From positions 1-38,017 of the IMG/VR virus record IMGVR_UViG_2534682157_000008: 38,017 bases of DNA. One strand, written 5' to 3'. The position numbers were made by a program. The stretch is from a virus (Duplodnaviria; Heunggongvirae; Uroviricota; Caudoviricetes). Every line of letters begins with the position of its first letter. Within the stretch, counting starts at the first letter, position 1. Below are positions 21,001-27,000 of this stretch, piece after piece.

Positions 21001-24000
21001 ATCGTATAAACAGGAGCAGTTTCAGACAGTGCCAGACGAAATTCTCTCTGTATTTGCCTGAACCGTAAGGCTTCTGCTGTGACAGTGACAAAACGCAAAA
21101 CTGCTCTGGATGCATCTCTGGTCATGGCATTTCCACTAAACTCCATTAACGCCAGATATGATGAAACCAGTGAGTGACGACTGATTTGCATTCCGGAACG
21201 TTCCAGCGCTGCGACACGTTGCAGAGTGGTATAACTGCTGTCCGTTGTCATGGAAACAGTTGTCACACCGGGCACTGATATATGTGCAAAATCAGAAAAT
21301 CTGTAGAAAGTATTTGTTGCCGTATTAACGAATCCGGCCACATATAAATTATTTTGCTCAACAATCAGACGAAGATGGTCAAAACGCGCCTGATAGACAT
21401 CAAGCCCTCGTATATCCACAGCAAAATAACTGCCCGGTGGGGTGTGGTTAATAACAGACACCGATGTGGTCCCCTGAGATATATGCTCAAGAGGAGTCGA
21501 TATTTCTGTCCGTATACTATTTAACGAAGAGACATAACTTTGTTGAGTCGAAAAGTCTATCGTAAATTCCCGGGAATAGGATACCGAAGAAAAGCCCAGC
21601 AACAGGCACAGTATCCATTTTAACAATATACACTTCATATACAGGTGTTCCTTTTGGCTGAAGTAATACGGCACCAGACCCGGCACAGATATAAAAAAGG
21701 CCCGCAAAAGCGAGCCAGAAAAATAAGTATGGCGCGTTGTACTGGATTCGAACCAGTGACCGATTGCTTAGAAGGCAATTGCTCTGTCCGGCTGAGCTAA
21801 CAACGCTGAATACCGATAATGGACCGCCATCGAGGACTCGAACCCCGCGCAACCAGCTTCGAAGGCTGACGCTCTATCCCGATGAGCTAATGGCGGTATG
21901 TGATATGGTGGCCCTTGCTGGATTTGAACCAGCGACCTGGCGATTATGAGTCGCTCGCTCTCACCACTGAGCTAAAGGGCCGGGCGCAGGATAATAACGG
22001 TACGTAACTAATCCTGCAATATCATCCGTTCTGACTGACTAAATCCTGAACTTCTCTGACCGTCTGCTCAAAACGTTCAGTCCCCAGCTCAACGCCAGTT
22101 GCACGCCGCCCCAGCGCCATCGCGGCTTTGACTGTCGAACCCGACCCCATGAAAAAATCTGCAACCAGGTCACCCGGACGACTGCTCGCGCTGATTATCT
22201 GCTGCAGCATTTCTGCCGGTTTTTCGCACGGATGTTTCCCGGGATAGTACTGCACCGGTTTATGCGTCCACACATCCGTGTACGGCACCTGCGCCGTCAC
22301 GCCAAAATACCGCCGCAGATGCTTATATTCACTCTGCAGTTCCGCATACTGCCGGTTCAGTGAAGTATACGTCTCCAGCAGCTGGTGGTGGGGCTTTTCC
22401 AGTTCACCCCGCTGATGCTTCTCTTCTGCCACCCGGGCAAACAGCACCTGTAATTTCAGATAATCGCTTTCGTTCGGTAACTGCCACTGACTGGCACTGA
22501 ACCAGTGCGACACCATGTTTTTCTTTCCTGTGGCATCAGCAATCTGTTTTGCCGTTATCCCCAGGGCAGCACGCGCATCACGAAAGTAAGCAATCAGCGG
22601 TGCCATCACATGCTGTTTCAGTGCCCTGCCCTTCGCCTCATACCCGGCATCTTTCGGACGATACGGCCCCTGATAATGTTCCGCGAACAAAATGCGCTCT
22701 GTGGCGGGGAAATACGCCCTCAGGCTTTCCTTGTTGCACCCGTTCCAGCGTCCGGACGGCTTCGCCCAGATAATATGGTTCAGCACACTGAAGCGTTCTC
22801 GCATCATGATTTCAATGTCAGATGCCAGGCGATGGCCACAGAACAGGTAAAGACTTCCGGCAGGTTTCAGCACCCGCCAGAACTGCGCCAGACACTGGTC
22901 CAGCCATTTCAGGTAATCATCGTCGCCCTTCCACTGGTTATCCCAGCCCTCAGGCTTCACTTTAAAGTACGGCGGGTCCGTGACTATCAGGTCAACAGAA
23001 TTTTCGGGTAACGACCGGATAAATTCCAGGCAGTCAGCGTTGATCAACTCACAACTGGATATTTTTACAGTATTAAACATGGATCATTAAGCCTGTCTCT
23101 GATAGGCTCATTCTGCTTTTGCGCAAAGCAGTGGGCCTGAGGTTTGCTTGTGATCCAGACGCATGAGCAGATGGCTGGTGAGTGCCCCTAACACCCACCA
23201 GCCGCCCATTTACCACAAATAAAAAAGCCTTCAGGACTGAAGGCGTCTGTAACAACCGAACTGATAGTCTGCCAGACCCGCCATAACAAGCTGGGTCAGT
23301 ATTAACTGGCAGCGTTCACGTGAAAGATAAGTATTCTGCGCAATCTCCCCGACTGTCGCCGGTTCGGTGGCACTTAATTCATTAAACACCACTCTGGCGG
23401 TTTCTGTCATATCCTGCTGTTTCAGCATGTCTTTTTCCTTTTTCCGGTTAACGTGACACACCAATAACTCTTGTCAAAAAAGCCAGCAAGCTGAAAAGAC
23501 CAGTATTCGCAACCACCAGCGCGTTTAACGCCCTGTGTCGTTTTTCGGGCATAAAAAAACCCGCCAGTGGCGGGGATCTTTTGATAAAAACGACAAAGGC
23601 ACCATTAAGGTGCCTTTTACACAGGGGCAGCAGGCTTGTCATCACCTTATTGCTACTCCTGGCTTCCAGTTCGGAAGTCTCACAAGTCCCATCAGGGTAC
23701 AGCGACAGTATCAGTCAACACACTATGTGTGTCAATATAAATTCATATCGAATTCGATAATCGTTTTCGATTATCGATACAGATAAGCCATCCCTATCCC
23801 GTGCAATACCGCCCGTTTAATATTCTCAAACTCATCTTCCGCAATCATAGGAACAATATAATTTCGCCCCTCCCAGGTTCTAGTTTTTATGCGATCCAGT
23901 CGGCTCAATGAAACCGTCATCAACATGTCACATTTTACCCAACAAGTAATATGCTCATTACCAGGGATGGGGTTTTCTGATAACTCATGATGGCAATCTC

Positions 24001-27000
24001 TGCGAGGAATCGGTTCAGTAGTGCTTATTGGTACCACTGTTACCAATTGATTGTTGTGTCTGTTTCTGGACACGACTACCACTGGCCTGACCTTGACTAT
24101 TTCCGGAACAACCATTCCCCGAAAATCACACATTAAAACAGAACGAACAGACGGCTGATACTTTAACACCATAAATCTCTTTGCCTGATAATGACGACTT
24201 GTGAACTCCACTACAAACAAAATGATTCTGCTGAACAGGCAGTTTCGCACTGTACATTATAACCTGTTAAGCCAACAAAAAAACCCGCTCGGCGGCGGGG
24301 TTTGCTTACTTTGCCATCGCGTACAAAATCGGCAAAATATCAGATTTACATGAAATATATGCTTTTTAATCCAGTTTTGCAATATTTTGCTGTGAAAATG
24401 TGGTCTTTTGTTTTGAACGTGTTTTCGTTAAAAGCAATAAAGCTTGGCTATCAAGCTGTAGAAAAATGTGCTTCATTGCAACCCAGCGTTCAGTAAATGT
24501 CTCAGACCAGTTTTTTGATGTCACTCCCACCAGTGATGCCAGATCCCGGTATTCATAACCTTCCCCACCAAAAAGCTCAGCTTTTACCGCTTGCGCCGCC
24601 AGCCAGATCAACTTCTTCAGACGTTCCAGCGTTTTCCCAGCTATTTTTCTGGTACCGGATTGAGTATTAAATTCATTCCACGCCCACTGCGTTATCGCAA
24701 TCTGATACTCCCAGCAAATGTTTCCGCCGTAACACCACAACAACCACGCCTTCTGATGCGCTTCCAGTTCCAGAACTGCACGTCGCCATGATGATGTCGA
24801 AAACTCAACCGGACTGACCAGAGCAATTGACGTCCCTTTCGCCAGTGATTGTTTACCCGGGATCGGTGGGTTATCCCGCGTGATCATTTTTCCGGTTACC
24901 TCATCGCGGTAACGAATTTTTTTGCGTCTGTAACGCCCTGTATCGAACAGTGCATTTTCCTGCCAGGCTTCCAGTTGGCCTTTTATCGACACACTGAGAT
25001 CCGCAGTGGCAATCATGAGTTGCTCACGAACAAACTGTAAATACTGGTTATTCATGCACACCCACCTCTGTAATTCTTATCTCCAGCCGTCCACCAGATA
25101 CTGGCTGGCCACGTACAATATTGATTTCATCAAACTGCTCATCGTCCATTAACAACCCTGCATGCGTCAGCGCATCCAGCGGCGCTTTCAGGATATTATC
25201 CAGGTCACGGCGGCGCTTATCCGGTGGCTCTGCAATCACCTTTATCGCCAGCCTTCCGGACAGGCTTAATTTCAGCCGCTGCTGGCGAACAATAAGCGCC
25301 ACTGCCCGGCGATAGCGCTTTCCCTCCTCAGATATAAAATATGTGCTGCCACGACGTCGCCAGTAAGTATTCACCGTCGGTGGATAAGGCAAAACAAACT
25401 CTATACGCATCAGTAACCTCTTTTACCCAAGCACGCCGGTTGCAAAGGCGTGATCAAGAAAACGAAAAATTAACTCAACCTGAGAGCCGTACTTTTTCTC
25501 AAACTCCAGCGGGTCTGCATGAAGTTCGTTGTGATGTTCCCGGCACAACGGTAGCGTGAAAATATCGTGGGCCTTTGTCCCCATTCCCCCCTGACCATGA
25601 CCAATCAGGTGATGCGGATCGTCAGCAGGCTTACCACAACACGCACACGGCTGTGTCTTTACCCAGCGCGTGTATTTCTCATTAACCCAACGGCGACGTT
25701 TAGGCCGCTTCATGAACGATTCAGGAGACTCCGGATCAACAGCGATACTGACAACCGTTTTTTCTGTGGTGGATTTTGTTGCTGGTGGACGTGAAGTGGC
25801 AGCGCAATATTTTTTGTGCGCTGCTTCAGTATGCTGATGGCTGTCTGTTCTCCCGGTACGATGTCACTCTCACGGTATACGGAGCGGATTTTTTCCGCTG
25901 GTAATCCCAGCGAACGACGCGCTACTGCCTCAGGTAATGCATCCACCACCTGATTGCAGGCCGCCCACCAGGATAATTCGGCCAGCGATAATTCACGCTC
26001 CTGTGTGCCATTCATTGCGTGACGAATGACGTCAATCATCCATGCTGACAGGTTTTGGTGAGCAAGTTGCTCAAGTGATTCGGAGGTCTGGTCACGCAAC
26101 TGGTTGTCGCAGTGCCAGCACAACACCATTGCGCCGGTACCATAACGGTGAATGACGGTTTCACTGTGGTGATAATCGCCGTGTGGCCACTGGCAGGATT
26201 TAACATGGCGCAGTAACCAGTCAGACAATGCGCCAGCGCCACCAGCAGCACGAATCACTCGTTCGTCGCTGAAAAATGGCAGTAATGATTTATCCTCCGC
26301 CAGCGGCTGGCGAACGGCAGGAACGACCCCGGACGGCAGATTACGCATGCTTTTCGGTTCCGGCTCCACCAGTACCCGGGTATTGTGGAATACCGGCATG
26401 GATTCACGGCCCGGCTTAACGATCACCAGCCCGAGTTCCGGTACCAGAACAGGTCGAAGTAATACCCGCACGTTACCTCCAGATGCGTTGCTGGAATGTG
26501 CGGGACGGACGCGGTGGGCGTTCAGAGTAAGGAAGCCTGACGGAGATTATCCAGTGACGGTAGTCGAGGCTAAGGGCTTTTTTAACCTCGTATCCGCGCC
26601 TGCGGTAACACTGAATGAGCCATTCGGCCTGTTCTTCAGTGCATGGGGGATGCTGGTACCAGTCAGATTTGAATGCGTGAAAACACCGTCCGCGCCTGCT
26701 GGCAAAGACGGCTGAATTATCAGAATTGTGTAATTTGGTATCGTGCGCCATCGGTTGTCTCTGCTGGCGCAGCAGGTGCCAGTTGTTCAGGCTGGTGTGC
26801 GAATTGTAAACCAGAATGCTAGGAAAAACAAAACCCGCCGAAGCGGGTTAAGTGCGGGTGCGTTGAGGATGCCTGACACATCAGAGGTGGCGAGGGATTC
26901 TCCCCATAAGCGCTAACTTAAGGGTTGTGGTATTACGCCTGATATGATTTAACGTGCCGATGAATTACTCTCACGATAACTGGTCAGCAATTCTGGCCCA

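Follow-up and report, generated by a model that had tools for sequence, protein, structure and literature searches.

What is the function of the promoter, the two terminators and the palindromes that lie ahead of the Shiga toxin genes of this prophage, and what is the MazF-like gene doing beside them? The window, by which we mean the whole stretch of DNA that was analysed (38,017 nucleotides (nt), IMG/VR virus record IMGVR_UViG_2534682157_000008), is a Shiga-toxin-2 prophage in which all late genes are on the minus strand. An earlier note, made from the sequence alone, had taken the elements at 23552-23735 for the late promoter and terminator of the phage (pR'/tR'), with a MazF-like gene at the position where the antiterminator gene Q should be and the recognisable Q 7 kb away. 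We arrive at another reading, to which we assign a probability of roughly 0.55: the window contains a late-control module of the phage 82 type (Q82) and, separate from it, an inserted cassette made up of a toxin gene and the gene of a small RNA, where the RNA acts as the antidote of the toxin. The features concerned are given below in the direction of late transcription, with their basis between brackets.

25061-24366, minus strand: 231-amino-acid (aa) open reading frame (ORF), a Q of the Q82 family (PF06323)
24382-24354, minus strand: pR' (promoter scan)
24342-24323, minus strand: sigma-70-dependent pause element (sequence compared with the published phage 82 pR')
24299-24277, minus strand: tR' (terminator scan)
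23725-24221, no strand assigned: 497-bp segment that is absent from toxin-less E. coli prophages (blastn and alignment)
24172-23771, minus strand: PemK/MazF-like toxin gene, 133 aa (PF02452)
23777-23746, no strand assigned: palindromes overlapping the stop codon of the toxin gene (sequence inspection)
23735-23707, minus strand: promoter of the small RNA, TTGACA-17-GATACT (promoter scan and conservation across genera)
23703-23586, minus strand: structured small RNA of about 115 nt (covariance model)
23617-23595, minus strand: P4, the terminator of the small RNA (terminator scan)
23574-23553, minus strand: second terminator (terminator scan)

The position of the antiterminator gene turned out to be occupied. 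The 231-aa ORF covers 217 of the 220 positions of the PF06323 profile (E = 6.3e-90), matches PHROG 304 ('anti-termination protein Q-like', E = 1.7e-105), shares about 80% DNA identity with the Q gene of phage 82 and is annotated as 'bacteriophage antitermination protein Q' in identical E. coli loci. The MazF-like gene starts only 194 bp downstream of it, so that the supposed separation of 7 kb between this gene and a recognisable Q does not exist. The 3' end of the Q gene overlaps the -35 box of a promoter composed of TTGCAA (24382-24377), a 17-nt spacer and the -10 box TATATT (24359-24354), with an A at 24347 as the predicted +1. Downstream of this start follow an extended -10-like element (TG-A-TATTTT, +6 to +14), GCC at +15 to +17 and an AT-rich stretch up to +25. 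The arrangement agrees with the published layout of the phage 82 pR', where the pause falls at +25/26 and the -10-like pause element carries an extended -10 and is accompanied by GCC at +15-17 (PMC5001585). The hairpin of tR' (CCCGCCGCCGAGCGGG plus T7) lies about 50 nt downstream of pR', and the complete stretch from pR' to tR' aligns with the Q82-like region of phage 434, in whose record the homologous hairpin is annotated as a terminator. On the basis of these sequence features we take the Q82-family gene, with its own pR', sigma-dependent pause element and tR', to be the operative late regulator. Without Q, tR' would end the pR' transcript at about 70 nt.

The PemK/MazF-like motif pattern that had been noticed in the next gene was borne out: its product matches the Pfam domain PemK_toxin (PF02452, E = 6e-14) and PHROG 15698 (E = 1e-47), which is listed there as a family of unknown function. 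The PemK domain is found in all of 111 homologues, several of which were named 'YifN (PemK superfamily)' by the Joint Genome Institute. An AlphaFold2 model derived from 20 diverse homologues scored well (predicted local distance difference test, pLDDT, 91; predicted template modelling score, pTM, 0.85), and the top 50 structures recovered with it by Foldseek from the PDB were all MazF, PemK or MoxT (probability 1.0, template modelling scores 0.54-0.81); in sequence the protein resembles solved MazF proteins only marginally (E ~0.03). Arg29 of an RP motif and Ser50 of a VPxST motif are invariant in the 20 homologues and align with the motifs HRPAVV and VPCTT of E. coli MazF, that is with Arg29 and Thr52, the catalytic residues of that enzyme. 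Judging from the model and the motifs, the 133-aa protein has the MazF fold, belongs to the YifN subfamily, is probably an active endoribonuclease and is not a Q; the suggestion that it might be an unrecognised member of a Q family is thus contradicted by the predicted structure. The protein has no match among the PADLOC or NCBIfam models. No conserved protein ORF was found upstream of the toxin gene in 76 loci, which leaves the RNA as the sole conserved partner of the toxin, and the gene calls in Enterobacter, Pseudomonas and Xenorhabdus loci include no small gene beside it. We also considered a promoter-like site on the plus strand (24163-24192), antisense to the start of the toxin gene, and discarded it, as it is not conserved in Enterobacter and as the number of promoter-like sites equals that expected by chance.

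The evidence for an RNA gene comes from comparison of 80 loci that carry relatives of the toxin (one genome per species) and come from the Alpha-, Beta-, Gamma- and Deltaproteobacteria together with a small number of further phyla. A 9-mer, ATGACAAGC, occurs 50-150 nt 3' of the toxin gene in most of them. The toxin loci of Enterobacter show about 73% DNA identity to the window over 24195-23588, i.e. over the toxin gene, the promoter and the sequence up to the first terminator, and the stretch 3' of the toxin gene is common to Xenorhabdus and Pseudomonas as well. Thirty-two diverse sequences could be aligned as an RNA of about 115 nt, with invariant single-stranded motifs and four main helices:

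P1: short 5' hairpin
P2: variable hairpin
P3: long stem, of which the apical part is the invariant GAUGACAAGC (23643-23634, minus strand)
P4: GC-rich terminator (23617-23595, minus strand), followed by a conserved CUUUGUC(N)UUU tail

The helices are supported by covariation: 89% of the alignment cells are paired, versus 39-53% after displacement of the partners by 1-3 columns, compensatory changes occur in 19 of the 27 pairs, and the observed values were reached in none of 500 shuffles. The RNA of the window scores 89.9 bits against the resulting covariance model (E = 6e-21, 23703-23586), and its minimum free energy fold, calculated from this sequence alone, is the covariation structure (z = -3.49). 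Neither for the window nor for ten other loci does an Rfam 15 family match the RNA at gathering threshold, and an E-value search against Rfam returned terminator-level noise only. Two further ideas about the RNA were dropped. A small peptide starting from the AUG in the conserved loop was rejected, since indels shift the frame among relatives while the stems covary; the reading frame is not conserved and there is therefore no peptide gene. A pseudoknot between the 5' GCUUGU and the loop ACAAGC found no support, as divergent members alter the 5' element without a compensating change.

The promoter at 23735-23707 (TTGACA, 17-nt spacer, GATACT), which the earlier note had described as near-consensus, conforms to the consensus at 10 of 12 positions. 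A scan of the window for promoters yielded 5 sites where 4.5 were expected from shuffled sequences, i.e. no enrichment, and it is the conservation in register across genera that lifts this particular site above chance: of 75 distinct loci, at least 59 have a -10 box whose end is exactly 6 nt from the G of the GU(U/A)CC that follows it, and TTGnnn 17-18 nt upstream. The RNA therefore constitutes an independent transcription unit, and the promoter that had been flagged is the promoter of the family. Terminators are enriched in the window (15 sites against 4.0 expected), and the two hairpins that were expected here were both recovered (23617-23595 and 23574-23560, minus strand). They belong to different units. 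The TTGACA promoter and the first terminator are, on this comparative evidence, the predicted transcription unit of the structured small RNA of about 115 nt. The homology with phage phiP27 begins exactly at 23574, and the second terminator is therefore part of the next module and not of the RNA gene.

Could promoter and terminators at 23735-23560 still be the pR'/tR' of the phage, and the MazF-like protein its Q? A near-consensus promoter followed by terminators does stand upstream of stx, and a related arrangement exists elsewhere: in E. coli E9 and in the viral contig L152 a deletion fuses a lambda-type pR' (TAAATT, then AACGATGGG) directly to the RNA body, so that the RNA terminator probably serves as tR' and the RNA body as a short pR' transcript. 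This is the single setting in which the picture drawn in the earlier note nearly holds. For the window we give that picture next to no credence, in view of the Q82-family Q immediately upstream, which has a pR', a pause element and a tR' of its own, and of the MazF fold of the protein. In addition, no -10-like pause element follows the promoter at 23735-23707: the first 25 nt of the predicted transcript, GUACCCUGAUGGGACUUGUGAGACU, lack a TAnnnT hexamer and make up the conserved P1 hairpin. Finally, Pseudomonas, Caulobacter and others have the same unit of promoter, RNA and terminator behind the toxin gene at chromosomal loci outside phages. For this last reason we also rejected, as a primary explanation, the possibility raised by E. 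coli E9 that the RNA is the leftover leader of another Q module.

The linkage between toxin and RNA is tight. In 77 of the 80 loci the covariance model finds exactly one match, on the strand of the toxin gene and just 3' of it. The promoter of the RNA is often embedded in the coding sequence of the toxin, with a gap of 0 nt in Caulobacteraceae. The three loci without a downstream RNA are one that runs into a contig end and two from Neisseriaceae (Alysiella and Kingella), in which the toxin gene is instead preceded by a weak RNA-like match (locus L083, 2874-2977, and locus L089, 2854-2972, both plus strand; loops GCGAUAACAAGC and GCGAUUGUCAAGC). Losses were observed in one direction. Of 37 E. 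coli genomes with the RNA, 24 contain the toxin as well and 13 do not, and 6-7 of the 20 RNA matches in viral contigs are without toxin; a toxin without any RNA was not seen in the loci where this could be judged. In the toxin-less prophage of E. coli JNEC-KY203 the missing 497 bp (23725-24221) comprise the toxin gene and the -35 box TTGACA of the RNA promoter, and the end-points share a 3-nt microhomology (CAT). As the -35 box lies inside this segment, we considered that an insertion could have created a hybrid promoter by chance. That possibility was discarded: the whole promoter is conserved together with the toxin across genera, and the 'empty' E. coli loci are therefore deletions. The RNA-only copies that were examined have lost their own promoter.

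Two observations on individual loci may be added. In E. coli K-12 MG1655 the sequence downstream of the yifN pseudogene matches the RNA model weakly and over its 5' half only (locus L100, 14905-14959, minus strand; E = 0.0011 with filters off), and toxin and RNA may have decayed together there. In the viral contig L120 an RNA gene without toxin (469-585, plus strand) is followed at about 50 nt by a tyrosine integrase gene (638-1660, plus strand), a layout that resembles that of elements integrating at the 3' end of small RNA genes.

The persistence of RNA-only copies invites a different explanation, in which the small RNA is autonomous, either regulatory or a late leader such as StxS, and is linked to the toxin for reasons other than neutralisation, for instance shared mobility or use as an integration target. 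In E. coli as well as in viral contigs such copies persist directly behind a Q gene, phages of the E9 type use the RNA as the body of a short pR' transcript, the RNA gene of contig L120 abuts an integrase gene, and StxS shows that short pR' transcripts can be functional small RNAs (PMC7547250). An autonomous RNA would not be expected to be linked near-obligately to the toxin, as this one is in bacterial genomes (77 of 80), to have its promoter so often within the toxin coding sequence or to lack a promoter of its own in the RNA-only copies examined, and we consider this explanation rather unlikely.

The strict pairing of protein and RNA, the invariant single-stranded motifs and the placement at a hotspot for phage accessory genes would equally fit a ribonucleoprotein with a non-toxic role, for instance an RNA-guided or RNA-sensing nuclease in defence or phage development, with the RNA as cofactor. 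Against such a role, no PADLOC defence model matches the protein, and RNA copies without toxin exist, whereas a toxin without any RNA was not seen in the loci that could be judged. Moreover, to our knowledge all characterised proteins with the MazF fold are toxins. A non-toxic ribonucleoprotein thus appears improbable.

The position of the cassette suggests how the phage may use it. It measures about 610 bp (24195-23588), consists of the toxin gene and the RNA gene, and lies just downstream of tR'. Contrary to one suggestion of the earlier note, the late region is not rearranged; it carries an inserted two-gene cassette. The accompanying proposal, of a toxin gene placed under late control, found partial support in that the toxin gene lies downstream of pR' and tR' and has no sigma-70 promoter of its own in the scan. 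The order Q, promoter, terminator, toxin, RNA promoter, RNA and terminator recurs with other Q families, namely in Enterobacter (Q-lambda-type, PF03589) and in Xenorhabdus (Q21-type, PF06530), which supports this proposal in part. In IMG/VR contigs the cassette is found after Q genes of all three families, which are unrelated to one another, including a toxin 100% identical to that of the window behind a Q21-like Q. Since the scan of the window revealed no sigma-70 promoter between tR' and the toxin start, the toxin is, as far as the sequence allows this to be predicted, most likely the first late gene to be expressed once Q permits read-through, and would share its transcript with stx2. In E. 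coli 2012EL-2448 and 2013C-3181 (loci L001 and L099) the region of Q, toxin and RNA is 99.4-100% identical to the window, and other genes replace stx2 downstream of the tRNAs, which points to modular exchange of cargo.

The remaining features that bear on the late region and on the second Q-like gene are:

25410-25048, minus strand: RusA (gene order map)
23428-23231, minus strand: small TrmB-like winged-helix ORF, homologue of phage P27 L23 (PHROG 331)
23080-22022, minus strand: DNA methylase (gene order map)
21981-21730, minus strand: three tRNAs (gene order map)
from 21707, minus strand: stx2A (gene order map)
31444-30912, minus strand: split Q-like gene of the Q21/QuuD family (PF06530 on 31265-30912)

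The module that begins with the second terminator has the TrmB-like ORF as its first gene, followed by the methylase, the tRNAs and stx2, and is common to phage P27. Five hairpins that resemble intrinsic terminators lie between pR' and stx2A, the last of them (21699-21716, minus strand) just before stx2A, from which it follows that stx2 should depend tightly on Q-mediated read-through.

These elements can be combined into a scheme. In the lysogen, transcripts from pR' would stop at tR' and the toxin would not be made, and the small RNA would be produced constitutively. After induction, Q-modified RNA polymerase would pass tR' and the toxin would be the first late transcript; the modified polymerase would then cross the RNA gene and another three terminators before reaching stx2. 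The small RNA would act as antidote by binding to the toxin protein in the manner of type III systems, with the invariant apical loop GAUGACAAGC as candidate binding site or pseudo-substrate. The Kid/MazF-like ToxN toxins are held in check by RNA, and this precedent, together with the asymmetric loss of toxin and RNA and the lack of a protein antitoxin, makes an RNA antidote that acts on the protein the model that we infer to be best supported, by analogy. As a generalisation we propose, tentatively and at somewhat less than even odds, that the window represents a widespread class of toxin-antitoxin-like systems, in which a MazF-fold endoribonuclease is controlled by a dedicated and structured single-copy RNA of about 115 nt, transcribed from a promoter of its own downstream of the toxin gene. 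Lambdoid phages, Shiga toxin prophages included, would have repeatedly installed such pairs as the first Q-dependent late gene, so that the nuclease is unleashed only on induction or by the matching Q of a superinfecting phage.

The RNA might alternatively control the toxin in a type I-like manner, as an antisense RNA that interferes with the translation or stability of the toxin mRNA by pairing with it. The strongest indication comes from Enterobacter (loci L008/L009, ~3971-3990 and 4520-4535), where the loop GGUGAUGACAAGCC is complementary over 13 of 14 nt to the 5' untranslated region of the toxin, about 30 nt before the start codon (z = -4.45). Neisseria and one Brevundimonas locus also reach p <= 0.025, and the window itself allows a 9-bp duplex that includes two G-U pairs. 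As a general mechanism, pairing with the 5' region of the toxin is not supported: over 46 dereplicated loci the median z was 0.12 and p <= 0.05 was obtained in 3, for the loop against positions -100 to +30 only. The loop is, moreover, invariant, whereas the 5' untranslated regions are unrelated. We therefore hold antisense control to be quite unlikely for the family.

Several points nonetheless weigh against an inserted cassette with an RNA antidote as we propose it. The complementarity in Enterobacter is one, as it makes antisense control possible for some members. The RNA-only loci, which are fairly common in phages, are another, as they may point to a separate role of the RNA in these phages. 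In all known type III systems tandem RNA repeats lie upstream of the toxin, an arrangement unlike that of the window. A lone, perfect TATAAT without -35 box (24261-24256), between tR' and the toxin gene, could give some transcription of the toxin that is independent of Q. Lastly, the proposal leaves the palindromes unexplained. As had been noted, they are perfect; they comprise 23746-23759 and 23754-23777 (TATCGAATTCGATA; arms TCGATAATCG / CGATTATCGA) and a further one in the spacer of the small-RNA promoter (23718-23732, ACACAC-ATA-GTGTGT), and those at 23746-23777 are not conserved in Enterobacter.

The distant gene that had been recognised as a QuuD-type Q is indeed one by its domain: the ORF at 31265-30912 (minus strand) matches PF06530 with E = 1.2e-31. 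Compared with E. coli 2013C-3181, where the allele is intact and encodes 173 aa, the gene as a whole (31444-30912) lacks 1 nt in an A-run and reads as two ORFs of 70 and 117 aa; the frameshift may be genuine, or the homopolymer may have been misread in sequencing. The gene belongs to the early region, where it is flanked by a DUF977 gene and by a plus-strand cassette that converges on it. That cassette (28761-30922) contains three or four ORFs without Pfam match and adjoins hok/sok; it is also present in a prophage of E2348/69 and may be an accessory or defence cassette.

Some other observations concern the annotation of the prophage. In identical genomes the Prokaryotic Genome Annotation Pipeline calls a hypothetical protein of 65 aa (WP_134790173, 23448-23645, minus strand) that starts within the small RNA and crosses both terminators, and that is probably spurious. 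The tRNA at 21906-21981 (minus strand) is called Met(CAT) by ARAGORN, and its homologue in relatives is annotated as tRNA-Ile (ileZ-like). The DUF968 gene consists of two overlapping ORFs (25710-26471 and 25423-25713, minus strand) that form a single gene of 1050 nt in relatives, so that a frameshift is likely. An IS4-family (IS421-like) transposase gene (26954-28072, plus strand) lies between genes of the nin region and hok/sok, and is annotated as frameshifted in the near-identical locus of E. coli 2013C-3181. Rfam matches elsewhere in the prophage correspond to STnc100, sok and DicF RNAs (20108-20315, 28415-28590 and 36480-36531).

With respect to known systems, the late-control map needs correction, in that the prophage does have an adjacent Q, one of the phage 82 family. 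Like phage 82, the window (25061-24366 and 24382-24277) combines a Q of this family with the same promoter layout, GCC at +15-17 and a terminator about 50 nt further on; this likeness concerns the neighbouring element and not the module at 23552-23735 that was flagged earlier. The position of a putative endoribonuclease gene between Q and stx2, on what is predicted to be the same Q-dependent transcript, could affect toxin yield, host shut-off, lysis timing or the exclusion of other phages.

The small RNA may be compared with StxS, which is a short pR' transcript that ends at tR' and is processed by RNase E (PMC7547250). Both are small RNAs encoded between Q and stx in a Shiga toxin prophage, and both end at an intrinsic terminator. 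The window RNA differs in having its own promoter, another sequence and structure and a wide occurrence outside phages; no similarity to StxS was observed, a direct alignment with StxS not being part of the comparison. Another conserved structure, the pemK RNA motif, was reportedly described by Weinberg et al. in 2017 in the 5' untranslated region of pemK genes of Firmicutes. As in that reported motif, the RNA structure of the window is associated with genes of the pemK family, but it is located downstream, is independently transcribed, is mainly proteobacterial and is matched by no Rfam model. We found no description of the toxin-RNA pair in Rfam 15 or in the searchable literature, which is incomplete and in which the loop sequence turned up in primers for FLAG tags.

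With MazEF, PemIK and Kid-Kis the toxin of the window shares the PemK_toxin match, the MazF fold and the Arg and Ser/Thr at the catalytic positions; it differs in that no gene of the MazE, PemI or Kis type accompanies it, as no conserved ORF lies upstream in the 76 loci. If the proposed control by RNA is true, hundreds of partnerless genes annotated as 'type II PemK/MazF toxin' would be explained. The type III toxin-antitoxin systems (ToxIN, CptIN and TenpIN) likewise combine an endoribonuclease of the Kid/MazF-like class with an adjacent, dedicated non-coding RNA, lack a protein antitoxin and have members on mobile elements and prophages. Their RNA, however, consists of short tandem repeats upstream of the toxin gene, with a terminator in between, and is processed by the toxin. 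The RNA of the window is single, about 115 nt long and folded into four helices, lies downstream and has its own promoter, and its binding to the protein is a proposal; the toxin belongs to Pfam PemK/MazF and not to ToxN/AbiQ. Should the RNA neutralise the toxin, it would represent a new RNA family and a new architecture among the RNA-controlled toxin systems, and would link the classical MazF family to RNA antidotes.

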